In this document: one piece after another, positions 1,421-38,474 of the stretch
Position numbering within the stretch: position 1 is the stretch's first letter
Layout: each line of letters starts with the position of its first letter
From: Marsupella aquatica
Taxonomy: Eukaryota; Plantae; Marchantiophyta
Direction of reading: 5' to 3'
Length of the DNA: 64,000 bases
Assembly: GCA_973895155.1 (NCBI GenBank)
Contig: OZ316894.1
Coordinates: 372,001-436,000, forward strand
The notes under the pieces: model-generated
What the model saw: the letters and a program-made list of their open reading frames with translations, nothing else
The model's database searches: none
Told to the model about the DNA's origin: nothing
Program-made: the position numbers and the translations under genes

Positions 1421-1513
1421 TTACTCGTGTAAATGCAATGGTTAGTACTAGGGCTTGGTGTATTCTGCCCAGGCGAATACGCACATGTCTCCCCTCTACG
1501 GTATGTAGAGTGC

Positions 1514-1531
1514 CCCCTCCATCTAGCGCCA
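1514..1531 (-). promoter_or_regulatory. primer binding site (tRNA-Asn-like) of family A element
   Basis: The minus strand reads TGGCGCTAGATGGAGGGG, one mismatch from the complement of the plant tRNA-Asn 3' end as I recall it. It lies between the LTR and gag. Confidence 0.8.
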
Positions 1532-6357: not shown

Positions 6358-6836
6358 TCAGAGGAGGAAGCAGTGACGACTAAGAGGGGGGGAGAGAGCT
6401 AGGGTCGAAGCTGGCGCGTGGACTGAATGACTGGTGCACTTGCAAAGGATCAGCCCCCTTTTATACCCTGAGAGCTCGTCGATCGCCCGAAGCCTCCTCG
6501 TTGCTTATAGGCCGAACCTCTCACGCTTGCAGTGTACCAGCCACTCCGCCGGTCCGAGTCAGCGTGTGACAGTGCCCGCCTCCCGAAGTTCGTTATACGG
6601 ACCCGAGGGGGAGGGGCAGGGGGGCCCATTACACGATCGCAACCTGGTCGTGCGAATAGCGACGCGCCGCCAGCCCGAACATGAATTCCCGTTTATTGAC
6701 TAATGATTCCCTACTCATAATGGCTACCTAAATACTGTCGTTATGCTAATGATAGCGGCCTAAGATACTCCTAAAGCGCGTGCCAAGCATGGTTTAGACG
6801 GAATCACTCATTACCCGCCGTACCGGCGGCGTCACA

Positions 6837-7928: not shown

Positions 7929-8522
7929 TGTCGTGTGGACACACATCCATACACAACTCACATTGCGGCACACCATGTAAACAAAGAAAAGATAATCACA
8001 CGACATACAACACATATACACCAAAATCCATAACAATCTCTTGCAAAATGGAACCCCGCCGCAAGGTATCACTAAGTCGAGCCAAACTCACCCGCTAGCC
8101 ATGCGGGACTCCAAGTCTATACACATAGCAGAACCCTGCTAATGTCGCTCTACATGCCAACCGATATACAATCTCTCTCTCTCACCATAGCCACACTCAC
8201 ATGAGCTCTACTAGTGTTGGGAGGCTCAACTTGGAACAATGAGGAGCTAATCCTCATGCTCCAAGGTATACCCCCATGGCACAAAGGGTATGGTAACTTG
8301 GGTGAACAGGTCATCCCTACCAGGTGACCTACTATACCAGGTCATCCTCCCAAACTCACAATACACCATGTGCAACCAACAAAGTTGCAACCCAAATGCA
8401 ACATGGAGTGACAATTGTCGTGCGGACACACATCCAGACACAACTCACATCGCGGCACACCATGTAAACAAGGAAAAGATAATCACACGACACACAACAC
8501 ATGTACGCCAAAATCCATAACC
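7929..8522. repeat. pair of ~107-bp direct repeats (7929-8035 and 8416-8522); probable short LTR(s) of the adjacent gypsy
   Basis: Both copies start TGTCGTG and end CCATAAC(A/C). The second is followed by GCCCCCCT, a polypurine tract on the minus strand. Confidence 0.6.
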
Positions 8523-8696
8523 GCCCCCCTAGCTGGTGGTTAGGCCCCGCTAACTACAGCTAGCCCTAAAACTAAAAGGAAGTATACACCTTTTGGGTAC
8601 ACAAATCAAGAGGTCGGGTGCAAAGAAGCCTCATTGTTAATCGCTTGCCTACGATTTATACTACCTAATAAGTTTTATGCTAACTAAAGCCAATCT

Positions 8697-14400: not shown

Positions 14401-14643
14401 AATAGAATAGAGTTAATCCTAATTCAGGGTATATTAGAACTTATAAACGACATGATCTCATTAAAAACCCCCTGCTTTCTTCTTTGGGGTAAAAAGAGTA
14501 TCACTATCTTACATGTAATAAGTTCGTTAAGTTGAGGGGACTGAGTATATGCTAAGTAGTAATGTGTCATTCTACCAGGTATTACGGGTTTAGGGTGATC
14601 GTAATAATAATGCCTGAAATGGGTAGTCGAGGGCATTTAGGTA

Positions 14644-17600: not shown

Positions 17601-19327
17601 ACCGAGGACCATTTCGTGGATGAGCATATCATCACTAGAAAGAACCGAAATGGTCCACTTGGTGGGTCTATTGGGCCGCAGACATCCACGTTTAGTTGTG
17701 AGAGGAAATCAGGTATGTGGTAGGTGTTTTTAGTGGTGGCAGGCATTGTAATCAATTTGCCTTGTGCACATGGGATGCATGTCTCATGTTTAGATGATGG
17801 ATGGACTCCTTGGGGAATGCCCGTGGTGTTCTTGAGGATTTTGTGGTACATTCCTGGGCCAGGGTGGCCAAGGCGGAAGTGCCATAGTTCTGTGGGTGAT
17901 AAGGGTTGGGCCTGTGAATGATAAGCTGTAATTTTGGTGGCGTATACTCCAGGGGGAAGAAGTGGTGAGGTCTCTAGTATGATTGGGCCAATATCAGTTT
18001 CCTGAAAGATCTGCAAAGCATCTACTTGGTGGTCAGGTGCAGAGCGAATGTGGAGGTTGTTTTGGCGAATATCGTGGAAGCTGAGTAGATTTCTGGTTGC
18101 AAATGGGGCGTAGATGGCAGATTGGATTTGAATAATTGTGCCATTTGGGAGGGTGAGTTCAGCGGGTCCGTGTCCTTCCTCTAATTGGTTTATACCTGTA
18201 ATGGTGGTCACAAGTCTATTGGATGGGGATATGTACTGAAAGTATTGTTTATCTTTTAATATTGTGTGAGAGGTGCCACTGTCAAGGATGCAGGTATAGG
18301 TGTCGGAGGGTGAGTTGGGGTTCTTTCCCTGTAATACCATGTGTATCTCTGGTGGGGGCGTTGCAAGTGTGTATTGTGAGAGGTCTTCATCAATCTCAAG
18401 ATGGTTTGCAGCTATGGCCGTGTTCGTGGTTTGTAGAGAGGCCTGGTATAGTTTGACCAGGTGGGATTGGGCTTTACAGTTCTTTCTGATATGACCAGGT
18501 CCGCCGCAACGGAAACACTTAGCCTGATTCTTTGTGGGTGTGATGTGTGCAGGTATGTTTTGAGTATAATTTGGCTTGCGTTGCCAAGGATTTGTGGTTG
18601 GCTGTGTGGTGCCGTTGTCCGTGCGTGCTTGGCGTCTCCAATTAAATATTTTGAAGCAGCCCGTATTTCTTCTAAGAGGGCCATTGTTGCCTTTGTAAGA
18701 GGGATTACCTCTGTTGGTACTCGTGAATTGGGTTTCAGTCCTGGGTAGCATACCTGGTGGTCTTTCTCGGGAGTTCTTAAGGAGAAGGAGATCGTTCTTC
18801 TCAGCCAGGAGCATAACTGCAATTAGATCAGAGAATTGGGTGAAGTGGCGTTGTCGGTAGATCTGTGACAATTGCATATTCGTTGCAGAGAATGTGGAGA
18901 GTGTTTTTTCGATCTTGGCTGCCTTGTTGATGGGTTCTCCACATGTTGCGAGTTGAGCAGTTATACGGAAGAGGGCACTGTTGTATTTTGCGATAGTTGG
19001 GTAATCTAGGACTCTTAGATGAATCCATTCGTTGCGAGCGGCTGGAAGGGAGATTAGGCAGAGGTGATCGAACCTCAATTTTAGAGCATCCCAGAGGGCT
19101 CTCGGGTTATACTCTGTGAGGTATTCAAGTTGTAAATCAGCGTCTAGGTGATGGCGGATAATGTACAGGGCCTGGGCCTTCTCTTGTAATGTTCCATAAT
19201 TGTCCCCCAATAAAATATCACCGAGGCCTTTCATGTTGAGAACAATTTCGGCATTCTGTGCCCAAGATAAGTAATTCTCGCCGTCTATTACGAGTGACGG
19301 GAATTGGAGCTTCTCCAAAGTTGTCAT
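14644..19327 (-). pseudogene. pol: copia gag-pol (gag, CCHC, protease ILDSGT, integrase, RT YVDD, RNase H) in four frameshifted ORFs
   Basis: ORFs 17558-19327, 16149-17627, 15368-16228 and 14644-15387. The last frameshift is a 16-bp tandem duplication TGCGCTTGTACATATC at 15375-15406. Confidence 0.93.
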
Positions 19328-19483
19328 TGTCAGGTTAATTGAAGTCTAGTAGCCCTGGGGAATTGGTCGTGGTCTGTGTAAATCAGGGTGCGGGCGGTAA
19401 AGAATTGTCGATGACAATTGGAAGTTATCAAAGAGAGAAAGAGGGAAAAAAACATAAGCTCGAGAAGATTGAAGGGCATAAAA

Positions 19484-19496
19484 CGTGCTAATAACG
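19484..19496 (-). promoter_or_regulatory. half-tRNA-Ile primer binding site
   Basis: The plus strand CGTGCTAATAACG matches the tRNA-Ile(AAU) anticodon arm and abuts the 5' LTR, which is the priming mode known for Bianca elements. Confidence 0.8.
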
Positions 19497-21167
19497 TGTT
19501 AGACGATGGCTTTAATTCATACACCAACAACACAAGGATAATCTTTTCATGAGCCAATGTGGCTTATAAGGTGTTACACATTGGATGGTTATAACTACCT
19601 TCTCCTAGTCTCATGACTCTCTATATCTAGTCCCTATATACCCCTTTGTATCACTCTATGAGTTAGGGTTAAGTGTATTCTAACAGATTCACTAATAAAA
19701 AATTCTGGGACCAAGCCACGATTGATCTTTTGAAGCGCAGCTTTCTCTGTGACATCCAATGTCAGTGACCAATTCTCCAAATCTAAATACCAGGGACAAT
19801 GCAGCACCTCCCATTCACTTATCTTCCGCAAGGGTTCAATGTCCTCAATAGGGTACATCGAGTACTCCCCAAACTTCTCACAACTGGAATCATCTCTTGC
19901 ATATTGAGCCCATTGAGAGAAACATGCCGGGTAACACCACCAAAACGATCTATTTGCCACCTCACGATCCACAAAAAACCTATAAACATACCTTTTTGCC
20001 CTCCGACGGAAAGAAACAATGTCAATCTTTTCCCCAACTTTTGGGGTCCAAATGCTCTTGAAGAACCTTACCTTAACCCGCTGCAGGAAATCTTCTAATT
20101 CATCATCAATTTCAGCAAGGAGGGATGCCTGACTATTCTCCGGGGAAGAAAGAATTCTAGATTCAGGGACAGTGAGAATAATCTCAGATATTGCTTCACT
20201 TAGTAAGCACCTCGCAATGGACTCTACCTGTTCCCATGTTGCCCATCGATGCAACCAGAGCTTGGTCTCACTATCCGAAAATTGAGATGGATGAAAATAT
20301 TGTTTATGCAACTCTGGTCTGCACTGTGCTTCGAGAAGAGTGCAACGGAGTTGTGGACTCAAAGAAGTTACCCCGGTGAAAAGCCTTGCACAATCAAGGC
20401 CACATGAAACATTCCCTCTCCCCTTATCATCCGTCCGCTGAGCTTCCTTCCTTTCTTTCTCACAATAATTATGCATCTCAACACATTTCTTGAAGAAATC
20501 CCCAAAGTCTGGATTCAGGAGCGGGGCAAACTTTGGAACTTTGACATTCCAGTCGGAGAGTTGCTCCTTCATCATATCTTGAACTGCAATGTCTTTTGCA
20601 GCTTTCGACAGAGGTTCGCCCAATTCCTCCTTTAGTGCAAACTTCTTTAACAAGTCAGCAGTTTGCGAAGCTATATTTGCAGCAGAAAGAATATAAATGC
20701 ATGCATCTAAGGTCATATGCTTCGAATACCACGACGACTTCTTTACGTTTTGCGTCTTCTGCTGAAATAACTTGAAATTTTCTGGATCAATTAAATCCTT
20801 GTAAACTGAAAGGTCCGTGCTCAGGATCTTCTTGACCCGATCAACTTCCAACACCCATGAATTCTCGACATGGCATTGTGTCAACCTGACAATGAGTATA
20901 TATTTCAGCAATCGGCAAGAACAAATTGTGCCCAAAAATGAAGCAAAAAGATCAAATGTGTCCAGGCTCTTCTCACCGGTTGAGAGCATGCATCGCAGAT
21001 TCAATCTGCACGAAAGTATCCTTCTCTCCTTTGAAAATCTTCGAGACAACTCGAGGATGATACTTCACATCGTGAGGATTCTCAACAGCAAGTAGGTTCC
21101 ACGAATAGAGACGGTGATTGCCATCGAAGGGTATAACCACCGTGCTAGCAAATAGTAAATAGATATT

Positions 21168-21320
21168 CTCATACGAGCCAATTTTGCCTCGTACAAGCAA
21201 AATTTTGTCTCGTACGAGTAAATAAGTTCCTCGTATGAGCATATCTATTTACTCGTACGAGTTTCTGTTTTCTTGTATGAGTTTCTGTTTTCTTGTATGA
21301 GTATTTTTTTTTCTTGTATG
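21168..21320. repeat. left subterminal ~20-21 bp tandem array with palindromic core CTCGTACGAG
   Basis: About 8 units with cores such as ctcatacgag, ctcgtacaag, ctcgtacgag, ctcgtatgag and cttgtatgag. Confidence 0.85.
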
Positions 21321-21600
21321 CATTTTAGTTTCTTCTCTTCACGGTATGTAGCGTCCATATATGCAATAATTGTGCAGACAATATTATGGCGGGTCCCACC
21401 ATTGTACAACATCAGAGGAAATTTCTTGACGATTTCACACAAGGACTCCAATATATTGCCACGAAATATGAAGTCGAAACAAAGTCATACAATACTAGCG
21501 CCATTGTATTATACAAAAAAACAACACTTTAAGAACTCACACTTCTGCCCGTTAGAAAAGACAAACTACAATTGTAGCTATTCAACGATAAAGCAACAGT

Positions 21601-24600
21601 CTACGTTCTCGTTCCCAACTGCCTATCAAGTATGTAACGGACTTCTCCCAACGTTAGAATTGGCTGGCTACATAATGTCGAATCGAGCACATCCAGTTTG
21701 AACACATTCTTGAACACCCAATACACATGTTTGCAAGGCATGTAAGGCTTCCGATAAGTATGCCGACGGTAGAAATCCTTGCAAGAGCAACATGGGAAAC
21801 AACATATCTGAACCCAATAAGAGGCGACTGATCTCTCATGTTCATGGGTCCGGATACAAAACTGTTTCCCCGACGCATTTCCACTCGTGATCTCTCTCTG
21901 TCCAATGACGCTCATCACTTCTTTTTCAGAGGCTTCAATTCTCTTCAAATGTGTTTGGGTAAGATGCACTCTTTGCAAGCATTTCTTCCCGTTCCTTGAA
22001 GCGCATCTCACAAATGGGTCAGTTAGGTTGATCCTCTCCGGGAAAAGATTGACATCAATCCGTAACGCAGAAGGCAACGGTGCTTCGATTTCATCTCCAC
22101 GGCCTTCAGAGAGAATAAGTCCTTGTTCTTTCAAAAATTGAATCTCTGCTCCAGAAAGATTGGTCCCTCTGGCAATTGGGAGATGTGAAGGAACATTGGG
22201 AATGTTCGAGACTCCTCTCCTTGTTGTGCTTCGGTGACAGCGGTTGTTGGGGCAAAACCATATCTGATCGTTATAAGGTTGCCCCCTGAACATTCTGCAT
22301 CCTCTCACGGAAATTGCAACAACACCATCTGGATTCGGAAGGCCAACCTTCTTTACTCGATTTTGACATTCATCACGACTACCTCCCCGTCCAAGGGTTC
22401 TGTTACACACTGGACCCGCACCCCGTCTTGAGGTCCGATGCAACTGCCAGGCACCGGGAGGTACTTCACTTTCCATTGGGGAAACTGAATGACAATATGC
22501 AATCTCGACAGGTCTTGCAGGCGTCACTGGTGGGACAGAGGATCTCGTTGCTCGAGGCGTAGGTGTGTCAATGACCACAACTTCCTCAGAAGCATCGCTT
22601 TCTGACAAATTATGGACCGCATCAATTCCACCGACTGAAGGCGTAGAAGGCATTTTCTCAAAATCAGTGGAATGTAGGTTTCTCCTTTTCAAACCTTTTG
22701 TATTTGGTGAAGTAACAAGGATGGTATCATGCCTGTGCGAGTCTTCTGCCGAGACGTTCCCAGTTGCATGTCCTTTTCGTTTCACCATTCGAGTTACAAC
22801 ATCACCATTCAATGGAACGCTTCTTTCCAAATCAAACTCAACAGCGTTCGACAGGAGGAGATTGGTGGCTTCCTCAAAGAGACGCGGCGACCCCGCCAGG
22901 TCCGCCGATCAGAAGGCAAGCTCAAAAATAGTTGGGCCAATTCCTCTGCTCAATCCCCTTTTGTATGCAGTATAAGTAGCAATTTGAGCAACCGCTCTAT
23001 TTTGGTCCGTTTTGCATCCTTCAAACAGACCAACCTTTTTTTCTGTTGCCATGCTTTCATTCCAGCATGCCTAGATTCCGAACCAGTACAATTAGGAATC
23101 ATCCCAGCCTCTTCGGCACTCTTGCTCTGAAACATTGCACGCAAGGGTCTAGTACATGTAAGAAATTGCACACAAAAGTGGCAAATGGCAATAACAGTAG
23201 CGCCAGACGCTAATAAACTGATGATGATATTTCCATGTAAAGAACCATTTAACACAGAATAAAGGCAGTCCTTACATCACGCATAGTCCAAACGGATTAT
23301 TAGCGCTCGGCGCTACTATTGTGGAATAAGGAACTCTTCTATCTCACACATGGTTCACTAGCGCCGAGCGCTATTAATGGGAACATGCATCCTAGAGCAG
23401 TGTATAACTCACCAGTCTTATGAAGTTCCCCCATTGTCTCCATCGGACAACCCACCAAGACAGCCATCCTTGCAGCATCCGAAGTTTGCCTGAGTGACAA
23501 TTGCCAGACCTCCACCAGTCATCGATTTCCCTCGAGATTCGATATGCTTTCAAGAAAGTTGGCGCATTCCGAAGACGATCCCACATCTCCTTGTGTTCTC
23601 CGTGCTTTCCATCTTTTACACCTTCTCAAGAATGACGATGAAAAGATTGGAAAAAATGAAAGGCATCTGATCTTTCTCGCTCTGGGTCGGGTACATCGTC
23701 AAAGAACACGTTTCGAACAGCATTCCAACCAGCCTGAGCATTGTCCGCCATGAATCCCCGAATTGTAACATCTTGTAAACCATTTTCATCGGCAACCTCT
23801 AACATCAAACGCCAGGCTCTCTCTAGAGATTTTGCATCTTCGGCCTTTAGCTCACAAGTGAATATGGTGCAAAGTGCCCGGTAATGATGATCATATACAT
23901 GGGCACTGAAAGTAAGCCAAACTGCCGTGCTTCGATGCATGACGTCAAAACTTACCCATGAACCCTCTAACGACCCACCAGGTTTCATTCTTTGGAGCAG
24001 GTCTAGACCACTCCCGTCACCTTTTACGGTCATTTTAAAGATATGAGCACTCTCGTCCCAACAGCCTTGACCAGGGAGCAAGAACCTATGAAGAAAAGGC
24101 AGTTGGATACACTTTTGCATCCTCACAAGAAATTCCAGTTCCCCTTTCCCCTTCTGATCTTGACGGACACTCCTCAAGACGGATGCAAACTTCTGAGGAG
24201 ATGCGACGACCATCAGGGACTCCCAGATTTCCTTCTCTTCTTCAAGAGAGATTTCTTCAACAGAGGCCTCGCAAAATGTATTCGTCAGTGTCTCAGTCGC
24301 AGAGTTTTTAATCCCTGCTGGGGATGCCATGGGGTTTGCAGTGAATCCCTTCTCCAGATGAGACCTTGCAACCTTTTCTGCCTCCCTCAAAAAGACCCGT
24401 CGACTGGGATGATTGTGAAATCCCATATGAACAGCTAGTCGCGACATGTGGGCCAAAGACTTCACGTCAACTTTTGCAGATGGATACATGTAGAACATTA
24501 GAGCAGGGCAGGCCTCAACGCACATCGGAGGTTCGGAGCAATGGTGACAAACAACTCCACCTTCGGAGATCAATTCCCCAACTTGGAATGGGCCCGAAAG

Positions 24601-25412
24601 TTTTGGGGTTCTTGTCCACATCTCATTATTTCGAAACTTGTTGTCTTTCCACCACGGACAAGCATTATTTCGACACTACAGCGATCCCGTACACTGGACT
24701 TTCCCGAAATCCACATTTTTTTCGGAAGAACATTTGAAGACGTTTTCACAATCCGAGTCCAATAATAACAATCCTTACCACGATCCATATCTTTCAAACG
24801 TTCACCTTTTGCGTTCACACAGTCTATCGGGGGTAACTCAAAAACCACATTCCCATTGTAAGATGTGGGAAGACTAGGCACTACGTGATGAACAAAATCA
24901 CTCCCCCTTATAAACCGAGACAATTCACTATGACCTTTGGATTTCAAGATTGTATCCATTGCACTCTGCCGGTACACATTCAAAGGCCCAATCTTTTCTC
25001 GATCCACATTAGACTCCTTTTTAACCGCGGATGGGTAAAGTGGAATCTTCTCTCTGAGAGTAGTCGTTAGTTGCTTATCATCTCCAGAACTTTCTGAGAG
25101 TTCGATGACATTGAGTTCAGCCGCTGTGGGAGGACGAGTATAGGAGGCCCCAGAATCTCTCAAAACAAAAACCTCATATTCTTTCTGAGCCTCCAGAGCC
25201 CAATATCTTTGACCATGAACAACATCGTAGAAAACTGGAGTCTCCCCCAAACAAACCGACACTAACGAGATCGCTAAAATAGATTCCTTGGGGACATCAA
25301 ATCTCACTCCCAAATATTCCTCTGAAACACGCTTTGATTCAGATGATTCGAGGACGGGAATTGTGATTACATCCCGAGTGTCCTTCCTCGTGACAACGAT
25401 ATTTTGAGCCAT
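21601..25412 (-). pseudogene. MULE transposase (Cys/His DNA-binding region, DDE core, C-terminal SWIM finger), mildly disrupted
   Basis: Cys/His region CHHC..C..CPA..HMGFHNH; DDE-like residues SFDVMH, FMADNA, DAFH and ESRH; SWIM finger CSCKDF..PCKHVYW. GT-AG intron at about 23127-23412. One in-frame TGA at 23626-23628 and frameshifts near 24600 and 22960. Confidence 0.82.
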
Positions 25413-25587
25413 GGCCTCAAAAGAGGGACATGCATTTGCCCCGCGCGAAATGAAATATGTTTATCATGAGATTCGAGTACGAGAAGTAAACGTTCCATTC
25501 TCATTATAGAGTCGTTATAGATTTGGACGCACTCCATCAATGACGTTTTGTCATCTTACCAACGGCAGGATTCGGGTTCATAGTTAC

Positions 25588-25735
25588 TAGCGCCTGGCGC
25601 TACCTCTAAGTGTAAAACACTCTTGGATGAGGACTACGAATGCCAATAATAATAGCGCCTGGCGCTACCTCTGGGTGCAAACATTCTTGGGTGAGGAGTA
25701 CGAATGCCAATAATAATAGCGCCTGGCGCTACCTA
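25588..25735. repeat. ~64-65 bp tandem repeat (2.3 units), each unit carrying the palindrome, upstream of the transposase
   Basis: The unit TAGCGCCTGGCGCTACCTCT..TCTTGG.TGAGGA.TACGAATGCCAATAATAA is repeated. Confidence 0.9.
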
Positions 25736-28700
25736 TTTCAATGGACTTGAAAACATTCAATTGAAGGATCAGTACAATAACACGATATAGTACGTGTCAT
25801 TAAGTTGGCACGCTTGAAGATCTTCACTGGATCTTTGCGAATCCGATCCGCCCGGGTCCAAATGTGTCAGAGAGGAAGCGTCCATGAAAGTTATATCAGA
25901 GGGGCCTCTTCGAAGTGGGTACCCAGGACCAAGTGCGAACTCTCCTTATATCTAGTCGTTCCCCTCGGATGTCCTCATTGTCAAGCCATTCTTCACTGAG
26001 TCGCAGTTGTGGCTCATCTTTCGGGCGCGTGGTTCCCGTTCTCGCTTTCGGGTCCAGTTGTTCTTTTTGGCTTTCCTGCGCGTTCTTGTTCTCCTTCTCG
26101 TTGTCGTTTCTCATTCTCGTCCTAGTTCACGCTGTTGTCCTCCTTCACGTTCTCGTTCGCTCTTCTTGTTCTCGTCCTCGTCCTCACTTTCAATGGCACC
26201 TCCATGAGGGAAGGCAAAGGATGAGGCACTTGTCCCGAGCGACACCGACAGGGAGACCCCCGCATCAAATAGCTTACCGCCTCGGCCGAATGCCGAGAGG
26301 ACGACGGTTCCAATATCGAAGAAGGGGAAACTCATCTCAAAGACAAAGAATGTCCCAACTGTGGGTCGCAGCGAAGGATCCAATCGGCCAAAATAATGCG
26401 AGCGGCCCGACTTCTGTTCCCTCTAGGGATATCGCCATTGCTTCAGTCGGCCGTCCAAGAGCCGACACTATGTGCACGAGAGTCTCCGTATCTTCTTCAT
26501 CTACTGAGAGTGATCGTTCTTCGAGCGGGGACTCATCACCGAGCAGGCAAGGATTTGCGTGGTATGGATCGAGCGACTCGAATGACGACTCCGATGCGTA
26601 CAAGCCAAGTTGGTGGGAAGACTGATTTCCCGTTGTCAGGGCGTATCGTTTGAGTGTTGGAGAGACTTGGAGGATCCATCAAGGTTGATAGGATCTGTTT
26701 CCACTCGTTTTTACTTATAGAAAACCCATACCGTTCCTTCCTCGTATGCCGGATTTCTAGTGTAATGTAACATTTTGTATTCGAATGGCACAGCCGTTCG
26801 TTTTTACCTCGGTGTCATTGCTTTTGAATTCAGAAGACCAAGCTTTAATTTTCGGTTCTGCTCCCGTGTTTGCATTGTATTTCTGAATGCGAACTTGATC
26901 TATTTCTTTGAAATGGCCGTAAAGACTCGCTTGCTGTCAATGTTTTGACTAGCGTCGGGCGCTATTATGAGAAACAAAGTGTCCGTAACACTGTCGTGAC
27001 AAGTCTTATCTCTAAAGTGTTTTTGATAGCGTTGGTCGCTATTAATGAAAGGAATTACAAGTCAGGAGTTATTTTACTTTTATTTCAACAAATTCTGTTT
27101 AATTGATGTGAATGTTAATAGCGCCAGGCGCTATTGTAATTCATTGGAATATTCGTTGAATGAATGGGTTCATGTTGTCATGTTTGTTGTCATTGGACTC
27201 GGATTTCGTCATTTATTTGAATACTAGCGCCGAGCGCTAATAAAGTTGGTTTGTCTATACCTGCATAAAATTGGAAAATTTATAGACAATTGTGTTGATA
27301 TTACTGCCCGTAGCTACATTTGAAAGTATGTTGTATAATAGCGCCTGGCGCTATCCAGAACCACCGACACTGATGTGGTTCCAACGGTCACTTTCCAACG
27401 GTAATATTATAGTAGATTGAGGTTCACGGAACCCTTTTTGCTTTTGTCTGGGATGAAAGTCCAATCGGAGAATGCCATCTGTACTTGGGACCGTTGGAAT
27501 CGAATGGCTGGTTCTATTGTATCGGTGTTTAATACGAGGTGGAGATCCTTCGTTTGGGATAATTTAGTCCGTCTACGCGCTCAGACCTCGGACTATACGA
27601 GTTTGTCAAGTGCGTATGTGCGTCCTTTATTGGTCACGTACATTTTGAGACGTGATCGTCACAAGAACTGCACGGCGCGTACGACAGTGCCGGGTGGTCG
27701 AGTCGCTCTCCACGGCAACTTTTGGCTGGGTGATACGAGAATGGGGGAGGCTGATGGTGGTCATTCTGAGTCCTCTCAGTCTTCGTTCGCTGGTTCAGTA
27801 TACACCCATCGTGTCACTCGATCGACTGCGTCCCTATCGACTTTTGAAGCTGAATCTGCACAGCCCTTCCCGAGGTTAAGGAGAGGGAGAATGGACCCTA
27901 AGGAGGTCTCCATGGGTGAAGTCAATGACATAGGCTTATCGATGGACGAGGTAATATCAAAGCACGCGTTGTCGTTCGGGAAGGATTTTCGAGGAATCGA
28001 TAAGGAGCCACCTCGAATTCCTCTTTGTAGATTGCTCCCCATGGAGGTTGTTCGAACATTACAGAAAGAAAGTGCATCGATCGAGAAGTTGAAGGAATCA
28101 TTCCGTGTCACCGGGTACAACTCGCGCATTGGGATGCCTTTCTACGTTCAGCCTGTGAATGCCGACGGGGTTTCGCAGATATGCACCACCGAGATCCGGG
28201 ACTCTTGGGATCCAATCTGGGTCGCAGAGAATAACAAGTTTGAGGAAGAGTGTGATGCGGACCCAGCGTTCCATATTCTAAAAGATAAAATGTTTTGTGT
28301 GTTTGACGGAAATCATCGATTGTACTCGTGGTCAATCGTCACGAGGGAGAATCCGGACAACTTGAAGTATCATCCTCGTGTGATTTGCGTCATTTTCAAT
28401 GGTGACAGAGGTTCGCTAGTTGAGCTCGAGGCGTCAATGCACACCGTGAACCAGTAAGTTCTATTCGTTAACTGTTGTTACCCCTGTCATTCATTTTTGA
28501 CCAAACATGCTTTGCGAAAGTGTTCATTCCCCAATTTTTGCTAGCGCCCGGCGCTACTAATTCCTTTTCATTACATCCAGGCTTGGACAAGCAGTCGTCG
28601 AGCCTTCCTGGATTCTTGACGCGAACAAAATTTCCCAAATTCTGTCGCGTGATCTTGATCACTATAAGCCACTCATCGACAGCGCGAACATGGCAAAGTT

Positions 28701-29858
28701 TGAGGCGATCCGAAAGAAGATGAGAAAGGGTCTTGGTTTACACATAAAATGCCACAGGATGCTCTCATCTACATTCTGTGTGTGGACAAAATCAAGTCTT
28801 ACTCAAATCAATTTAAGTCTGATATGGCTTTAGCCAAAGCTCAAGGGACTCCTTGGTCAGAAGAGGAGACCACAAAGAGGCATGAGGCAATGATGAAGGA
28901 GGCGACCAAAGATTGGTCGATCAAAGTGACGAAGATCACCCCTTTACTTCATCCGGATTTTGGAGATTATTTGGGAACCTGTGCTGAGATGTATCCCGTA
29001 ACTGAGAAGAACAAACGGGAGAAGAAGCCAGACACAGTTGTATGCACAATGGATCGAGCCAGGTTGTTTACTGCTGTTTCATACCTGGATCCAAAATTGA
29101 GGTGCACCCTTCTAGTAGCCCACTGCACTCCCGAGATTCGGAAACAGTTTTTCCATCCTGCAAGTGTCAACGACGAGCCTGTGAAGTAGTGGTGCCATAC
29201 ATGGCATACTTGGAATTCTGTGGAGGGAATTGCAACTGGAATGCTTCACACTTCCTTCAAACAGATTTCTGACCGGATGCCGGCTGACCGTCTCACAAAG
29301 TCTGGGTGTGAGTCAATGGAGGCCGTGCTTAAGATCATTCTCGATGAATTCAGAAACTTTGGGGATCTTGTCAAGGCAAAATTCTTCAACAACTTGTGGT
29401 CTTCCAAATATGCGGACAAGGAAGATTACACAACGGAACCGGAAGAGAGCCAAACGATATCTATACCGGTTTTACATGTGGATGGAGCTTAGATCTCCTG
29501 ACACTCTGTGGGCATACCCGGCTGCATTTCAGAAATGGGTGTGGATATACAGTAAACTTGAAAAGCTAAGATTAAGTGCAAATTTTTAAATTTTCTGGTC
29601 GCTAAAGTTAGAGTTCACTTAAACTTACATTTTTTACGCCTTTTAGTAAGATACGATCTTACAATCTTACGATCTTACGAGTTACGAACTTACGCGGTAC
29701 TAGAAGATTACGCCGTTGCAAGACTAACAGGCGGAAAGTACACTATGAGCCGCATCGCGTGAAATCTTACGACCAGAGCGAATCACTCTCTGCATGACTA
29801 TTTCCGACGCTTACAAGCATCGCTCCGCTTCATCTGATCAACATCCACCTCAAGATTT

Positions 29859-31343
29859 GTGAACCCGAGAGCTATGGCAACATTCGATTGTGATGAGGAA
29901 TACCTCATTGATTCTGTGGCAATTCCAAAAGCGCTCGTCATCAGGCTCCCCAGGACCAAAGAGAGCTATGAATCATTACGCCAATCCTTGAGAGAGCTTG
30001 GACTGGAGAAATTATTACGACTACCATGGACTTCAGAGTTGGACACCTACCTGGAAGATTTTGTCAGAGGATCAATTGTCGCCTCACCTTCACCTACTTC
30101 TATTCGAGGACGGCCCAGCAAATGGACCATAGATCACTTCGCGTATGCTTTTGGATGTTCTGCTGACGGAGAAGCGCTACTTTCGCCCAAGGATGATACA
30201 TCAACTCCATACTTTTCAGGTACCCGGAATAAGAGAAATGGCTGGAATGTGAGTCAATGCAATCATTTGGAGCTAAGAATTCTTTTGGAATTTTTGGTTC
30301 CTATTTTTCATCCCAAGAAACCAACTGTTTGCTCCATTTCTCTGGCCAATACCATCATCGCTGCGCACAGTGGTAGAGTAAAGGTCAATTGGGCTTTGGT
30401 ATTTTTCAATGTTGTGAGGGATCAACTTCGGACATTAAGGGCGAATCAATCAACTCCACTGCAAAACTATCTAGCCCAGCTATACTCCGCTTTTGATTGC
30501 TCACTTCCTGAGGAGGTGATGGAGAGAGATTATCTTATGGAAGAAATCTCCAAGTTGTGGGAACAAGATGAAATTATGCCTACTACAGCAGAAGAGGCAA
30601 ACGTCATATCGCCAGCTTCTCCGGGCAGCCGGGCAAGTCTTCACAATTCAAGTCCTTCAGATGAGGTACCCATGGACCTAGAAGCACTTACTACAGATGC
30701 TGAGATGATAGACTACTCAAGGATCCCCTCACCACCCCCTTCCACAGGAATTGGGAAGTTTCCTATTCGACTTGCACAGGACGACTCCAATCAGACCCTG
30801 ATCAGTAAGGTGTGTGCTTTGCTCAACTGTGACTTTCATTCACTGTACGAGACCATTGAGCAATTGCGCCATGACGCAGTGACACAGGTTCCTCCTTCTG
30901 CACTTTCATCTCCGGATCATGAGAATTCGCCATCATCTTCACCTCCAGCAGAAATTCAGCTCTCCCCAGAGGAACTTTTTGCTGTTAAGACTAGGGCTCA
31001 AATCTCAGTTCCATCCCCTATGGACTTGAAGGAGACCTCACCTACAAATTCAGAGCCTCCTCCCTGCTCATCTGTAGAACATCACTCCTGCCTTAAGATT
31101 GTCCATGAGTTAACTACTATGTTAGGCTGCCGTTCAGAAGAAGTCACCTCCATAGTCGATGAATTTCTTGATAGACCTGAACCTTCACGCTCCCCACTGC
31201 CATCCTCTCAGTTTCCCTATAGTCCTGATTCAAATTATGAGCCTACTGATAGTCTACCTCATAAATCTTTGCACCCCACACAACACTTCTCTCAGCAAGG
31301 ATTTCCCTTTTCTGAAGATTCTGATCCTCCATCCACACCCTAA
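29859..31343 (+). CDS. 494-aa ORF within LTR C; N-terminal region resembles gypsy accessory (Athila ORF/plant-mobile-domain-like) proteins
   Basis: GLEKLLRLPW..LEDFV..SIRG..WTIDHFAYAFG..RNGW..EFL..NWA aligns by eye with the family A (FEHLASLPW..EFV..LRG..LT..IFGLP..NGF) and family B (GLEAFVRLPW..EFV..YG..LT..VFGLP..KNGF) ORFs. Confidence 0.75.
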   Translation: MNPRAMATFDCDEEYLIDSVAIPKALVIRLPRTKESYESLRQSLRELGLEKLLRLPWTSELDTYLEDFVRGSIVASPSPTSIRGRPSKWTIDHFAYAFGCSADGEALLSPKDDTSTPYFSGTRNKRNGWNVSQCNHLELRILLEFLVPIFHPKKPTVCSISLANTIIAAHSGRVKVNWALVFFNVVRDQLRTLRANQSTPLQNYLAQLYSAFDCSLPEEVMERDYLMEEISKLWEQDEIMPTTAEEANVISPASPGSRASLHNSSPSDEVPMDLEALTTDAEMIDYSRIPSPPPSTGIGKFPIRLAQDDSNQTLISKVCALLNCDFHSLYETIEQLRHDAVTQVPPSALSSPDHENSPSSSPPAEIQLSPEELFAVKTRAQISVPSPMDLKETSPTNSEPPPCSSVEHHSCLKIVHELTTMLGCRSEEVTSIVDEFLDRPEPSRSPLPSSQFPYSPDSNYEPTDSLPHKSLHPTQHFSQQGFPFSEDSDPPSTP

Positions 31344-31368
31344 ACCCTAAACCCTAAACCCTAAACCC
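31338..31368 (+). repeat. (CCCTAAA)4 plant telomere-type repeat
   Basis: Four exact units; they supply the TAA stop of the 494-aa ORF. Confidence 0.9.
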
Positions 31369-31619
31369 TTCACTTCTCTCCCTATGATATTCCAGTCTGT
31401 GACTCACCAGATCAGGGATTCGAAGGAGTTAATGCAGCCTTGCGATCCAACCCCAACCTTGTTGCAGTTGTCACTTCTTCTACCCAGACTCCTAGAAACG
31501 CTATCATCTATAAAATGGAGCCTAGAACACCAGAGCAACAAGTCCAGAAGTATGTCACCACTTGTAAGGTTATGCATGCCAATACACCGCCTATAAGTGA
31601 GTTCTAGAGGTTTTATTAT

Positions 31620-32312
31620 TTGAAGAAAGCAGAGGCTAGCTACATTTTTGATCTCAGGATGATTGGTACCTCTCGCGTGGAGTTGGCTCAGTTTGATGAG
31701 TACTGGACAGATTCAGTCTACTTCCGACCTATACTGGCCGTTATGTTTCTACAAGGTGATGTTGAAGTTGATGACCCGGATTTAATCTTGGCCTATTTGG
31801 GAAATATAGCCGCTTATGCTTTAGATTTCTTACTGATTTTTCTAAAACAGAGCAACAAGTCTACTACCCCTGATCACTCATATATTCCCACTGGACCCAA
31901 GGTTATCCTTACTTCAACCACTTCTTATGAAGACAAGCAGCGAGTATGGAACAACATCAGCACGCAGCAGCTAACAAACTACACTCGCTACTTCCGGGAT
32001 GTGCAGTGGAAATTACGATCCTCCTACAACAAGATGCTGAGTACAGAGATGTTCTTACAATTCTACCCATCTGTCTACGCCAACTCGTGCAATTGTTTAG
32101 ATGTCATAGGCATCTTACGGGAAGCAATCAGAATCAACCAGTGCTTTTTGGAGAAAAGGATGCCACTTATGTATTGGGGAAGACAGATGAGATGTCTACC
32201 TTACATCCGGGATCAACCTCACTGTGATGAAGTAAGGGAAGCTATCCGGACGCGCACTATTTGGAAAGTAGAAATTAGAGAACCAGAGGATATTCGACAA
32301 CCAAAAGATTGA
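31620..32312 (+). CDS. 230-aa ORF or downstream exon within LTR C, function unknown
   Basis: Open frame with globular-looking composition. A possible intron GTGAGT(31598)..CTCAG(31657) precedes it. Confidence 0.55.
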   Translation: MKKAEASYIFDLRMIGTSRVELAQFDEYWTDSVYFRPILAVMFLQGDVEVDDPDLILAYLGNIAAYALDFLLIFLKQSNKSTTPDHSYIPTGPKVILTSTTSYEDKQRVWNNISTQQLTNYTRYFRDVQWKLRSSYNKMLSTEMFLQFYPSVYANSCNCLDVIGILREAIRINQCFLEKRMPLMYWGRQMRCLPYIRDQPHCDEVREAIRTRTIWKVEIREPEDIRQPKD

Positions 32313-35300
32313 AGCAGACCTGCAATTTTGTTAAGTGTCAGAGGCAGTTTCAGTTACTGTACCCCGCTCGATTTTATTAGACATGTTTTAAGATTCCAAA
32401 ACTCATCAAGTCTTTTTCAGTAGACAGCTTATACATAGGAAAACACATTGGCAAAGTCTCAATCACTTTGGATTGTAGTTAGAAAGTTAGAAATACTTTA
32501 GTTTGCTGAGTTTTCTATATCGTTAAGTTCCCGCGACTACGACTTTACGATCTTACGATCTTATGATCTTACGAACCTACGCTTTTACGAATTACGATCT
32601 TACGATACTACGGTAAACTTAACTTAGTTAGTTTTAGACCTTTTCATACTTAGTTTTCATTTTTGACTTCTTGAGGGTTTTGAAGGGTCATGACTCTTCA
32701 ACCCCCAAGGGTTTTTCCTCGATGTTTTTCACTATAAGTACCTTCCACTTCTAATAAGCAGCAGTAAGTAAGTCAGACATGACTTGTCGCCCCTTGGTGT
32801 TGTCCTTGTGATTTTGGACTTTTTGAATTCAGAGCAGGCATCCTAGGAGGGACTTACCTCCTTCTTGTATTTTGGAACCCAAATACTTGAAGTAAAACCT
32901 CAGTTATGAATCTCGTGAATTATAATGTCAGATTCCGCTTTGGTGACACATTGTAATCTCACAAGTTCTTAGAGTTAACCCATTGAGTTTAAGTTGCATT
33001 GGAAATGATGTTTTCACCTTCATGTTGCTTAGTACCATCTAAATGCTGAAGTATTTATCCTTTTAGATCTTGACTAAGTATCACTTAGGAAGAAAGGTCA
33101 AGACATGTTGCCGGCATTTTAAAAGGATACTCTAGTATGCAGTTTAGATCTGAAAAGCCGTGTGGATTTGAATTCCCTTAAAGTCATTCCATTATTGCTT
33201 ATGTCTAAGGAGTAACCTTGGTATATTCCAAACTCCCTTAAGCATACTCTAAGAGATTTTTCCTTGTGTTTTGTTAATTGCAACCTTTTGCTTAATTGAT
33301 GGTTATATGATGTTGAGTTATCATCAAAAACTGCTCACCGCTGTGGAGCGATCTTCAAAGTACCTAATTAAAGTAGTCAAGATTGATTACTATGTGTGAC
33401 ACAACAGCTTAAAGCTTTATTTTTAGTTTATTACATCAAACCAACCCAATCTTGTTCTTAACGGGAACGAATACCGAGTTTAGATACGTAAAAGAGTTCT
33501 TTTGGTTCTCTATAGCAAACTACAATGGGTGTCTATCGAAGAGGGAGACGCTCTTGCCAACCTTTATTCGATGTACCCAACGGAGGGAAAGTTTCCACCA
33601 CGTTCATTGTCGGAGTGGGAGAGACTTCACTGTCCCTGGTACCTGGACATAGACAAATGGGATTTACCGTTCGACGAAGCTGAGAAGGATGCCTTCATGA
33701 AGTTGCAGAAGTCCCAGATCCCTGCCAACTATGTGTCTGCAATGAAGCAAGGTCTCCAGTCTGATGTTGACGAATCTGCATCTGAGTTACAAAAGAATTG
33801 TGAGTCTCTTGTCATGCACGTTGACCGAAGCCATAAGCCAAGAGCAAAGGCGAAGAATGAGTCAGCTCACCAAGTGACTCCACAAGGTCCTTCAAGAAAA
33901 GTGAGTAGTCTAAGCGCTTTTTGGTTACTTGTTGGCGCTGCTTATGCAGGAGTTTCATTAGGAAATTCCTTTGATTAATAGCGCCTGGCGCTAGTCTGAA
34001 AGGTTGGACTCATTCAAGTTTCTGTGCCTAATAGGAGGTTGAAAGTCCGACACGGAGGTCCCGGCTGCCGAAGGGAAGAATGATGCAACTCCTCAGGCAT
34101 CGGAGGCAAACACTGGAGCTCAAGAAACCCCGGATCAAGGGACCCCGGATGGTGCTGGAAAATCCATTGTCCCTCTTGACGCAACTAGCACGAAGAAAAA
34201 GAAAAAGAGAGGCGCCGGTGAGGATAGAGCAGCATCATCTACTCGAGACGTTATTTCCTGTGGACTCCAGAGAGATGTCGGGAATTTTAAGTGAAGGTGT
34301 TCTAGACACTGTTTTGTGGAGTCCAATTTAAACAAATTTTACGATTCGGTATTTAACAAGGGGATTAAGCCCATGTGGGTTACTAAAGTTGAGGCCTGGG
34401 GAAAGGAATTGGTAAAGTCAGGAGACAGAGAGAAGGGAGTAATGCATGGCGGAAAAGAGAGGGGCTTTGGTGTGGATGCTGGTTTCATCTATATTCCCAC
34501 TGGATTAAAACCAACACTTCTTGATCGGAAGGTTCCCAAGTGGAACCTTCAGGATTACACTATTCCCAGCTCTTTCTTCCAAGCCATGGAGCCATTCCTT
34601 GCAGACGATGGCCTACTTGCAATTTTACACAGAGGAGACTATGATCAGGTATCTGAAGTGATTGCGGCTTGCCAGGATTCTAAGTGTTTCCAGTGTATTT
34701 CAACCCACCATGTGGTCATGACTACACCAATGTATAGGCCCCGATCTGATACTCAAGTAACAATTCCTCTTGCACATACTAGCGCCCGACGCTACTATCA
34801 GCATTCGCAATATCTACAATTCACTTATCTTTTGTAAGGATGAATGGTTTACTAGCGCCAAGCGCTAATATATGTGTCTGTTTTCTTATACTGCCTTCAT
34901 TGTGAAACTGTGTTGCAGATATTCACACTTACTCTTAATATATTTTGCCGCATTTCGACAAAGGGAAGGGTCCCAAAAGACCCCAAGTTCCGGCCACTAT
35001 CGAATGAAGAAGACCCTTCTGTCACTAACATTATTGGGTTTTCGTTGCCGCGACATGACCCGACTCCTGAGCTCCAATTTGCAGGAAATTCACGCTTGCC
35101 TGTGGGTTTCATGCAAACTATTTTGGAATTGGTGACTCTTCCTGGAGATATCGTTATGGACTGGACAGTAGGTTCCGGTAGTACGTTTGTGGCTGGAGAT
35201 TATTCTGGTCGCTTTGTTGTTGGGCTGGAAAATCGGCCAGAGTTTGTAGATACTTCCGGTAAGGTCTTCCTTGATCTTGATCTCCTAAGAAGATTCCTGG

Positions 35301-36207
35301 AAGTAAGAAGCAGGACAGGCTCCGTGCTATTCTAAATTTTGATTCGGAAGACGAGGATGAGGGTGGCAATGCTTCTCAGCAATCTAAAGATGATGAGGTG
35401 TCGAAGAATGTGGTGGACCTTGGATCTGGAGATGAGGACAGTGAAGAGTCAGAAGAGTAATTTTCTTTAGCTTCTTTCTCTCATTGTATACTTTTTTCCA
35501 AAGAACTCCTCTACTCCCTTTTGTCTAGAAAATTCGCCCGATTTCCCGACTTCGACTAAAGAACTCCAGTTCAAATTCTCAGGTCAGAGTGGAATCTTCG
35601 GAGGCGTTTTCAACTTCGAAGGAACGTCTCTAGGAACGTTGTACAGACCCCGGAGAAGCCATTTGTTCTCCCCTCTTATGCTGAAAAGGCGGCACGATGG
35701 GCAGATTCAGTCAGGACGCTTACTTGGGAGAGTAAGGGTCTTAGACTCAGGAGAGGCTCAGATAGAAAGTTTGTGCATAATCACTTCGTAGATGATATTG
35801 CAAAATCCAAGTATGTGGACGACGAAGCAGAGTCCACTGATAGATCAGAAAGTAGCGGCTCTGAATCGGGCTCAGAGTCGAGTGGTGGTTGTGGATCTGG
35901 TCTTTAGTTCTCCTTGTTTTATTTACCCGTTTATGGAGAACGACGACACTCAATAAGAACGCCGTGACGTGTCGGATTAGAGTAGCGCCCGACGCTATTA
36001 CTGTAGCCGGTAGTTCAAAGAGGTTTTTATTTTGTTTTTTTCCTTATAGCGCCCGGCGCTAGTATAAATGTACTCAATGGCCGCTTCACGTCCAATATAT
36101 GTGACAATATTTTCATACCCTTCGGTGTCTTTTTTTGGGTGCACATTTGCTGGTATGAGTTTTGCTGTTTGCTGTTTGCTGTCACGGAGAGATCCCCCGC
36201 CATTGAA

Positions 36208-36756
36208 TACACTAAACATCTTATCCTTGAGCACAGCAAAATCAGGATGCGAATCACACTCCCTCTCAAAAGCTTCATTCTGCGCCAACCACATTGGATC
36301 CCAGCTCTGTCTGATTGTGTCATTCAGAAACTGCACGTCCCCATTCTCATTTGTCATTTGCACATAGAAACGAGGCGCGTCCTCAATGTACCCTTGAGCT
36401 CGGAACTCGCTCTTAAGAGTCTCTATCGCATTCGAATCTGTCTGCAGAGACCTTACGAGCTGCATGTTCCGCATTCGACATAGTGGAATTCTTGGGGGAA
36501 CAAGAGGATACCCAAATTCATCTAGCCCAAACTGGTAAAGGTGACGGTTAATTACAACTGAGAAAGGCTCGGACTTGGTAGAAGCCATCAAAGGTGGTAC
36601 AATATCCATTGGATCAACAAGCTTTCGCCTCCTTGGAGTCTTCAGCCCCGAAGCAAGTGCTTTGTGGCTTGTAGAACTTCTGGTCTCCCGACGTTGAGAG
36701 GCAGCTGATTGTGAGGCAACGGATGAAATAGACTCAGGAGATGCAAAAGTTGCCAT
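36208..36756 (-). pseudogene. 5' part (ParB-like domain) of the outer element's ParB-MTase-like gene
   Basis: MATFASPES..PPRIPLCRMRNMQLVRSLQ..IETLKSEFRAQGY..LKDKMFSVF matches exon 1 of the gene at 27741 and stops exactly at the TSD. Confidence 0.88.
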
Positions 36757-37356
36757 CGACTGATAAGGAGAAGAGAACCACACGAAGGGAAGACAAGGAA
36801 TTGGTACGGTGAATGCAAAGGAATCCAAAGTCACATGTGTTGGGAATCCAAAGTAAGAATTCAGGGGAATCCAAAGTAACCCATACTACAGTGTACTTGA
36901 CAGTGACAGGGAATATCAGTATTTAACACCTTCATGTGAAAGATCCATCAACAAGATCTCAACTCTGTTAATCCCACCAGCACTAACGTTAACGAAGCTC
37001 CAGTTAACGTTAACTTGGAGTCTAGTTAGTATTTACCAACAACTCGGTCGGATGAAATGTACATTCAACTTCAACGGGTTGGAGACAATTAATCTCTAGG
37101 TGACCAACTTGGGTTGGGTGTCCGTTGACACTAACCATTCTCCAAAAAAAAATATATGCCGATGGAATAAATAAACCAAAGTATTTATGAAATGTACTCT
37201 TTCAAATCAAGTTAACCCTTCCAACGGTAATATAATTTTGAATCTTTGGTGCACGTAGATGCACTTGGTCACCATTTGGAACGAGTCTGGATCTTTTTAA
37301 TGGAAAAATGGACAAACCCCATACGTTGTTTAAGCCCAGTATTTAGACAGTTTTTT

Positions 37357-37993
37357 GCCAGCGACATCGCTGGCCAAATCACTGTAAACCCTAAACCCTT
37401 AATATGATGTTTGTCCATTTAAAATGAGCTCTTAATGCTTTCTGAAAATCTTGAATACTCTACAGAATCTTTGAAACTGTTAACCCCCTCTACTAAAAGC
37501 TCTCGGTTTAACTACTATGTTATGACATTTAGGAAATATATTAGGTTCTGGATTCCTGAATTGACCCCCAAACTGAAATAAAAGTATATGCAAATTTCTG
37601 CGGCTTCAGGCTAGCGGTATCGCTGGCCTTATTGAAGTTTTATGAATGGTTTAATTACGGGACATCTCAGATTCCTCTCTTCTGTTTATATCATGTTGTT
37701 GGTGAACATGATGTTTTCAAATATCAAAAATATAGATCTTAAACACTGAAAACTTACCTGAATTATGTCTAGCGAGGTCGCTAGCAAAACTATTTTTAAA
37801 CACAAAGCTCCAAGTTCATTTAGCGTCCTAGTACACCCCAACTATACCCCAAGTTCAGGAAATGTGCTAGTATATCCCTCACCATACTTCTTGTCAAAAT
37901 AAAATAGGCCATTTAATTAAAGAGTAAACACTAAAATTCTGGTTCATAAGCACCTCATTATTCGAGAAAATTTAGGCTAGCGATATCGCTGGC
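37357..37993. repeat. palindrome family AGCGA-N2-TCGCT of the outer element
   Basis: GCCAGCGACATCGCTGGC (37357), GGCTAGCGGTATCGCTGGCC (37609), CTAGCGAGGTCGCTAG (37769) and GCTAGCGATATCGCTGGC (37976). Also CAGCGAGATCGCTG at 13162 and a degenerate copy at 11903. Confidence 0.85.
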
Positions 37994-38474
37994 AATAATT
38001 CTTTCTTGAAGGTATTATAGCCGTTGAGGTTTTGTCGTATCTGCAACATTAAACTGACGTTCCATTATTCTATATTCATCCATGATGTTTGTGTCCAAGT
38101 ATTATTCTATATATTCATCCATGATGTTTGTGTTTGGATCCTTGTCTTGGTTCTCTTTTGATGGCTCCGAGCGTCATTTTCTGGCGTCGGAGCACTGGAG
38201 ACATTGTTACTCTTGAAGTTTCATGTATGAGAAAGATCACCAATGTGACCGAGGCCTTTCTTTTGACAAGATTTGGGCTCAATAACTGTGATTTCATTTC
38301 GAGGTTGTTCTTTCTTGTTTCACTTCATGGATCTAGGAAGGACGAATTCATTTCAAGAACTCTACATGGTGCAAGAGTTTGGGAGGTTGCTTCCGGAGAT
38401 GTTGTTGAGGTTTTGTCAGGCAGAGATGATTTTCTCGAGCCTTTTCAGAATACTCGGGAAAAAGTGTTTGTGGG

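Follow-up and report, generated by a model that had tools for sequence, protein, structure and literature searches.

In a stretch of 64,000 nucleotides from the liverwort Marsupella aquatica (contig OZ316894.1, positions 372,001 to 436,000; hereafter the window) we found 17 copies of a palindrome, TAGCGC-NNN-GCGCTA, all in the non-coding DNA of a single Mutator-like DNA transposon, here named element A. This element carries a putative transposase gene and a cargo gene, the product of which has a predicted ParB/Srx fold at its N-terminus, and it is nested within a related transposon, element B. Judging from the sequence, we consider it slightly better than an even chance (a probability of about 0.55) that the palindromes are family-specific binding sites of the cargo protein, which would occupy them as a dimer and keep the element transcribable against host silencing by 5-methylcytosine (5mC).

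The exact palindrome occurred 12 times in the window (0.00 expected). Allowing at most two mismatches raised the count to 17, where 0.84 would be expected and none of 100 shuffles got as far. All 17 sites lay between 23198 and 36061 and thus within element A. When every spaced palindrome with arms of 5 bp was counted without prior choice of a motif, TAGCG-N5-CGCTA came first (17 copies), well ahead of the next unrelated pattern (4 copies), and the fuller pattern at 3 mismatches returned 18 places, namely the 17 sites and an unrelated three-mismatch match at 62379 (1.16 expected). Folding the 17 sites into 34 half-sites gave the consensus TA-N-TAGCGCC-N-GGCGCTA-N-TA. TAGCG was invariant and was followed by C (28/34), another C (29/34) and a free centre; outside the half-site, T was found three bases out in 24/34 and A two bases out in 27/34. 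The first-pass annotation of this DNA had described conserved arms around a varying 3-nt spacer. The arms are conserved as far as the invariant TAGCG reaches, but their innermost base differs in 6 of the 34 half-sites, and the spacer was misdescribed, since it reads C-N-G with C in 29 half-sites. That the flanks are mostly unrelated was borne out: the median between sites was 15 matches in 50, equal to shuffled sequence, with the exception of the tandem pair 25653/25717 (28/50 alike), and 6 further pairs of 136 lay at or slightly over the shuffled 99th percentile (21). A comparison of the flanks of all 17 sites revealed no consistent target-site duplication (TSD) around individual sites, and a micro-element with its own TSD, which had been named beforehand as a possible refutation, was therefore rejected.

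Predicted exons make up 65% of element A after subtraction of a later insertion (insert C), and they hold none of the 17 sites. The probability of this avoidance is about 2e-8 if the sites are independent and 2e-4 if they are collapsed to 8 clusters; the introns are predictions from GT-AG ends, frame continuity and homologues. The distribution that had been claimed was recovered in all its parts, with three sites in the transposase intron, three upstream of the transposase, five upstream of the cargo gene, four in three cargo introns, two near the right end, and none in the 4-kb insert (Table 1). The first full site lies 2069 bp from the left end of the element. One contig of run X1 and one of run X3 have a 10-base insertion behind 21502 that completes the palindrome of the half-site (21496-21502), and contig joints of other copies add or skip sites, which shows that site number turns over in this family. 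A GC-rich, site-free stretch between two of the clusters (25890-26680) consists of broken low-complexity frames; on its minus strand it has a weak match (E 0.055) to a NIF phosphatase domain that is fused to a cargo relative from Adiantum (P0129).

We also confirmed that the motif keeps its CpGs despite decay elsewhere. None of the 34 core CpGs in the 17 sites was lost, and searches at 2-3 mismatches would have caught decayed copies. At the level of single bases, 0/68 CpG positions in the sites were changed versus 10/68 C-to-T changes at two adjacent Cs (Fisher p 0.0014). An array of a second palindrome, CTCGTACGAG, near the left end of the element had lost 7 of its 14 CpGs (p 5e-5 against the A sites, the array copies not being independent of each other). 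Variant contexts were drawn from 40 of 1634 variant rows, among which were 20 C/G losses in the window copy, 8 of them in CG and 7 in CHG context; because 15 of these 20 listed losses fall in the two contexts, decay of the methylation type acts on element A. The observed/expected ratio of CpG was 0.70 within 50 bp of the sites, 0.62-0.77 in coding DNA and 1.09-1.17 in more distant non-coding DNA. A local demethylation halo around the sites was rejected, as the ratio near them is no better than that of coding DNA.

Element A is inserted in the cargo gene of element B, which has the same divergent arrangement of transposase and cargo, and it splits the cargo frame exactly at the TSD: residues 117-276 of the Riccia protein P0154 align with 36675-36187, and the match resumes at 21128 with residue 270. 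The cargo proteins of the two elements are 34-61% identical, depending on the region. Element B contained no A site, all 17 of these being in A. Its own palindrome, YAGCGA-NN-TCGCTR, was found 7 times in the window versus 0.27 expected; 6 of the matches are in element B and the seventh is a one-mismatch match in an exon of A. The best B copies extend to GCYAGCGA-NN-TCGCTRGC. A and B sites thus have YAGCG in common, whereas their inner bases differ and their spacing differs by one base. The invariant core, the unrelated flanks, the lack of a TSD per site, the retention of all 34 CpGs and the presence of the B palindrome at equivalent places support the palindromes as a real feature under selection, and they favour selection of a site for a dimeric protein over passive duplication, as the first-pass annotation had proposed.

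An exhaustive phmmer search with cargo exon 1 gave 228 relatives at E<=0.001; among the ten that were looked up, six came from Riccia sorocarpa and two from Adiantum, a spread that by itself makes a seed-free land plant the probable source of the window. Word-index protein searches found no relative (0/372 candidates for the ParB exon, 0/7 for the N-terminal half of the methylase). The AlphaFold2 model of the N-terminal domain had a confidence score (pLDDT) of 89.5, and in a VIA search of 48,161 chains 13/13 matches were of the ParB/Srx type, the best being KorB (Z 7.1, root-mean-square deviation (rmsd) 3.0, 95 residues aligned). The model of the Riccia protein P0151 matched ParB N-terminal domains at Z 8.5-8.7 and rmsd 2.2-2.3 Å, including Caulobacter ParB with Z 8.7, rmsd 2.3 and 99 aligned residues. 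We thus predict a ParB/Srx fold for the cargo N-terminus. Foldseek by itself gave no match at E<=0.001 for the cargo models, no match to the cargo was obtained in phages, the cargo profiles A1 and A3 found no relevant PDB sequence, and hhalign of the profiles against 47 KorB sequences returned nothing, as did its N-terminal positive control. The motif [DE]GNHR was present in 107 of 150 cargo relatives; the DGNHR of the cargo we take to be the GxxR-type position of ParB. The palindrome had been called parS-like beforehand. The predicted fold of the cargo lends some justification to this name, but likeness of the site sequence to chromosomal parS forms no part of the support.

The helical middle region of the cargo, which is 40% identical between exon 2 of element A and element B, possibly contains a ParB-type DNA-binding domain. 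A wide structure search with this region retrieved generic helical matches only. In the ESM Atlas, comparison of features placed the ParB plus middle region of the Riccia protein near fungal DUF3723 clusters and comparison of structures placed it near ParB clusters; the structure rows with HTH_ParB fall under the naming bar of the Atlas. The C-terminal methylase-like domain had its best PDB matches in CcrM and DpnA. It is permuted, with motif IV before motif I, and the S-adenosylmethionine (SAM)-binding motif I is kept. Motif IV reads Y-I-P-T-G in cargo A and ALPT in cargo B, both without DPPY or SPPY, and DFPI and DVPF in two Adiantum proteins. All 15 Riccia sequences covering motif IV (17 aligned) are without the aromatic fourth residue, which makes the loss family-wide, and the catalytic (D/N/S)PP(Y/F/W) signature of beta-class methylases was absent from A, B and 15/15 Riccia sequences. 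Several Riccia cargo proteins (P0154 and relatives) carry the automatic name trimethylguanosine synthase in UniRef; the domain has a PF01555-type DNA methylase fold.

Table 1. Positions of palindromic sites, genes and mobile elements in the window
Feature	Position	Strand	Basis or remark
Predicted transposase intron, 3 sites (23198, 23301, 23359)	23127..23412	-	GT-AG ends, two frames joined in phase
3 sites upstream of transposase, about 64 bp apart, tandem duplication	25588..25731		unit number varies in other copies
5 sites upstream of cargo gene, 77-114 bp apart	26950..27353		
Cargo intron 1, one site (28542)	28454..28580	+	GT-AG; same intron position in metagenome relatives L001 and L002
Predicted cargo intron 2, one site (33979)	33901..34034	+	GT-AG splice signals alone
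Cargo intron 3, two sites (34780, 34853)	34757..34918	+	GT-AG; Riccia alignment; element B intron at same place
2 sites in 3' non-coding end, 137 bp from element end	35983..36061		
Half of an 18th site, 3' of transposase	21496..21502	+	full site there in other family copies
Cargo exon 1, predicted ParB/Srx-fold domain with DGNHR motif	27741..28453	+	relatives, AlphaFold2 model
Frameshifted cargo exon 2, encoding the helical middle region (candidate DNA-binding domain)	28581..29542	+	tblastn with Riccia P0154
Cargo 3' exons, beta-class N6/N4 methylase-like domain	34035..35460	+	Pfam PF01555, E 3.4e-8
Conserved tail exon or small open reading frame (ORF)	35545..35905	+	common to element B and Riccia proteins
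Left subterminal array of CTCGTACGAG, 7 copies	21168..21301		internal CpG-decay control
Element A, Mutator-like DNA transposon, short degenerate ends, decayed copy (stops, frameshifts)	21129..36198		9-bp TSD
Putative Mutator-like transposase, two predicted exons, broken	21601..25415	-	ORFs
Insert C, 3981 bp, no sites	29543..33523		perfect 9-bp TSD
Element B cargo, 3' part	12124..21128	-	interrupted by Copia element at 14194-19685
Element B cargo, 5' part, ParB-like domain	36199..36885	-	45% identical to A
Element B transposase start, cut off by retroelement	38161..38474	+	26% identity over 95 aa to A transposase N-terminus, E 1e-6
4 B-type palindromes between B cargo and transposase starts	37357..37993		
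B-type palindrome, last predicted B cargo intron	13162..13175		equivalent to A intron 3
B-type palindrome, one CpG lost, 3' of B cargo	11904..11917		

Element A is about 15 kb long, and the two copies of the 9-bp TSD at its borders (21120-21128 and 36199-36207) differ by one transition. Its termini show about 30 bp of degenerate inverted similarity, corresponding to Mutator-like elements (MULEs) of the type without terminal inverted repeats (TIRs), and the length of its TSD falls within the 8-11 bp given for MULEs (PMC6446971). The transposase-like gene runs leftward (25415-21601) and the cargo gene rightward (27741-35460). Contigs from four public runs of three organisms match positions 21000-29700 (1999, 2986, 367 and 159 contigs), so that element A represents a multi-copy family; their identity was 80-100%, and the commonest changes were C>T and G>A. 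The transposase had no match in Pfam, PHROGs, NCBIfam, PDB sequences, plasmids or viral contigs. By eye it contains what are presumably DDE-, CxxH- and SWIM-like motifs. Both ends of the element (21129-21168 and 36154-36198) bear short repeated YAGYAAA words, which are candidates for transposase binding. At a loose end in run X6 (position 23406), two contigs of organism C leave the A transposase exon, which they match, for an intron in which the B-type half-site CCAGCGAGG is found; this hints that close relatives of the transposase may have switched sites.

Insert C had been labelled an LTR element, which proved wrong. LTR elements are recognised by direct terminal repeats, TG..CA ends and a TSD of 4-6 bp. 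In insert C the TSD is 9 bp long, and blastn detected no direct repeats at its ends. Its non-coding DNA (29652-29768 and 32538-32601) contains strand-biased TACGA(TCT) arrays of its own, flanking its two ORFs, with 15 TACGA versus 0 TCGTA and with CpGs largely kept; this is possibly a third family-specific recognition motif. The ORFs (29838-32312; 501 and 234 aa) match no Pfam family. For the first there is a weak similarity (E 0.03-0.3) to accessory ORFs in the GC-rich retroelements, located at 41.1-41.4 kb and 57.1-57.5 kb. Several further mobile elements surround the two transposons. The Copia element in the B cargo gene (14194-19685) has 189-bp LTRs that are 99% identical and a 5-bp TSD. 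Positions 8500-11470 hold a decayed Ty3/Gypsy pol gene with reverse transcriptase, RNase H and an integrase zinc finger; the stretch behind it resembles a PHD finger by eye. Nested copies of one GC-rich retroelement family with gag and long antisense coiled-coil ORFs occupy 38475-64000 and 1-6500, and they include an 18-bp tandem repeat at 38741-38895.

If the palindromes are sites of the cargo protein, they would be occupied by a dimer of this protein and by neither the transposase nor a host factor, and the helical middle region of the cargo would read the site. The methylase domain without DPPY or SPPY may then serve as a SAM-binding or base-shielding module and not as an ordinary methylase. 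The outcome would be anti-silencing as described for VANC proteins of the VANDAL transposons, with both divergent genes staying active against 5mC, and protein and site would co-diverge, so that each family would activate only itself. Several points weigh against this explanation. The window copy has no halo of the VANC21 type. The metagenome relatives L001 and L002 (contigs of 1.2 kb) are without a clear palindrome by eye. End-to-end alignment of five ParB/Noc chains with residues 9-395 of the Riccia model leaves an rmsd as high as 8.5-15 Å. The MULE identity of the transposase is putative, with the TSD and visually recognised motifs as its basis. Two families were compared, and protein and site may differ between them by shared descent. 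Finally, transposases can themselves be sequence-specific activators (10.64898/2026.08.24.746577). Should binding of the cargo to the sites hold true, the locus, with its two nested families that each have a defined palindrome and a predicted ParB-fold cargo of their own, would contain a parS-like recognition code in a eukaryote. It would also point to an independent origin of self-recognition by transposable elements (TEs) in liverworts and ferns, and could yield a compact, site-addressable chromatin tool.

A bolder version, which we regard as doubtful, holds that Mutator families of seed-free land plants domesticated the ParB/parS clamp. An NTP-gated dimer would load at family-specific palindromes placed in all introns and in the gaps between genes and slide along the entire element, while the methylase-fold module would shield it from 5mC, and new families might arise by switching the inner bases and the spacer of the site together with the protein. 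This would amount to a eukaryotic ParB clamp and to a second TE-encoded anti-silencing machine, unrelated to VANC.

The transposase is the most obvious other candidate for a protein that binds the A sites, for internal activation or synapsis, in which case the cargo would do another job. The A and B transposases differ as well (26% identity at the N-terminus), element A has short degenerate ends only, and for AtMu1 the transposase is described as binding motifs and causing hypomethylation of cognate copies (10.64898/2026.08.24.746577). The A sites are internal, however, beginning more than 2 kb from the left end, and the ParB-fold cargo would be left unexplained. The element ends carry other repeats, and AtMu1 transposase binding within AtMu1 copies is located at the TIRs (10.64898/2026.08.24.746577). 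We consider use of the A sites by the transposase unlikely. It is a shade less probable again that the cargo does bind the sites, but serves as an autorepressor or copy-number control similar to KorB, or else still methylates with a changed chemistry, and is not an anti-silencer. KorB, the best structural match, is a ParB-family long-range repressor acting on palindromic operators (PMC11790492); 8 of the 17 sites flank the two divergent promoters, the missing demethylation halo agrees with such a role, and motif I is kept, as is the Asp of motif IV in 15/15 Riccia sequences covering it. Yet the intronic and 3' sites suggest action along the whole element, the aromatic fourth residue is found in 0/15 of these Riccia sequences, A and B are without the Asp as well, and a double change of SPPY to APPA abolishes the activity of N4CMT (PMC8885841).

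TEs often carry sites for host factors, and the clustering of A sites near both promoters would be in keeping with recruitment of a host transcription or chromatin factor. We consider this very unlikely, as the other 49 kb of the window contain no A site, and as the different inner sequence and spacing around the common YAGCG half-site in element B fit a co-diverging element protein better. Least probable of all would be that the palindromes, kept without sequence-specific binding, act through a hairpin or cruciform or are left over from an independent micro-element. The four sites tested can fold as hairpins with stems of 5-8 bp (z -1.4 to -4.5), and the flanking TA can be read as a 2-bp TSD. 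But the arms are invariant in sequence and show no compensatory changes, in cargo intron 3 the variant bases would leave C-A mismatches in the transcribed strand, a consistent longer TSD is missing, and a free micro-element would not stay in one host family while avoiding exons and insert C.

Among plant transposons, element A most resembles the VANDAL elements with their VANC proteins, which are likewise Mutator-like, have a 9-bp TSD, short or degenerate ends and an accessory gene beside the transposase (PMC5735166, PMC6446971). In VANDAL21, the 9-base motif bound by VANC21 occurs in introns, between genes and in the non-coding DNA of the ends, and VANC6 recognises different motifs (PMC5735166). 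Both systems thus have short family-specific motifs in non-coding DNA, the number of which changes by tandem duplication, and sister families with different motifs. VANC motifs, however, are 8-9 bp long, non-palindromic and mostly in tandem, whereas the A sites are mostly dispersed palindromes of 15-21 bp; the cargo of element A is a fusion of ParB-fold and methylase-like domains, and the element has no trace of local CG hypomethylation. General Pfam scans of the cargo found no family of the VANC/PMD type, and these scans include no direct comparison with VANC sequences.

A second comparison is with red-algal Plavaka, Mutator and Zisupton elements, which encode a ParB-like PAG3 and a methylase-SET protein PAG2 (bioRxiv 10.1101/2025.02.11.637652). 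These too are eukaryotic DNA transposons, including Mutator in Chondrus, that combine a ParB-like gene (best match 7BNR) with a PF01555 methylase gene, and the authors of this Bostrychia preprint proposed inverted-repeat arrays beside PAG3 as self-binding sites (10.1101/2025.02.11.637652). Plavaka has two separate genes, one joining ParB to a 2-oxoglutarate (2OG) oxygenase and the other joining the methylase to SET, together with an EnSpm transposase and tandem repeats by PAG3. In element A, ParB and methylase form one gene, sites are spread across introns of both genes, and the site switches between nested families. No SET or 2OG family turned up in Pfam scans of the ORFs and cargo of element A. 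The nearest named ESM Atlas clusters, DUF3723 of the fungal Starships (10.1101/2021.12.13.472469), also represent a transposon accessory gene and scored 0.95-0.97, which is a lead only; the cargo relatives had no Pfam DUF3723 match, and Starships use tyrosine recombinases, unlike element A. Fusions of ParB-HTH to a different methylase clade were described for chlorophytes and chytrids (PMC4738411). In the literature searched, which left most subscription journals aside, we found no ParB-methylase fusion in a land-plant MULE, no A or B palindrome and no site switch between nested families. The idea of self-recognition is partly in print for red-algal Plavaka, and TE-encoded self-recognition is of a known kind.

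With bacterial ParB/parS, Noc/NBS and KorB/OB (PMC11790492), element A has in common the predicted ParB/Srx N-terminal fold and multiple palindromes of similar length distributed over one mobile element. The KorB operator OB (TTTAGCGGCTAAA) and the A site have the TAGC half-site in common, which may be due to chance. No ParA family turned up in the scanned ORFs of element A, in which the region at 25.9-26.7 kb has no assignment, and the cargo differs from bacterial ParB by large insertions, by its C-terminal methylase-like domain and by having no detectable sequence similarity to KorB. The methylase-like domain finds its counterparts in MpDN4MT1 and N4CMT, which are permuted PF01555 folds of prokaryotic origin in eukaryotes, one of them in a liverwort (10.1101/2021.02.12.428880, PMC8885841). 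Those two belong to the host genome proper and retain the complete (T)SPPY, whereas the cargo is a transposon gene with D/Y/A-[LMI]-P-[TS]-G at this position and a ParB-like domain at its N-terminus.

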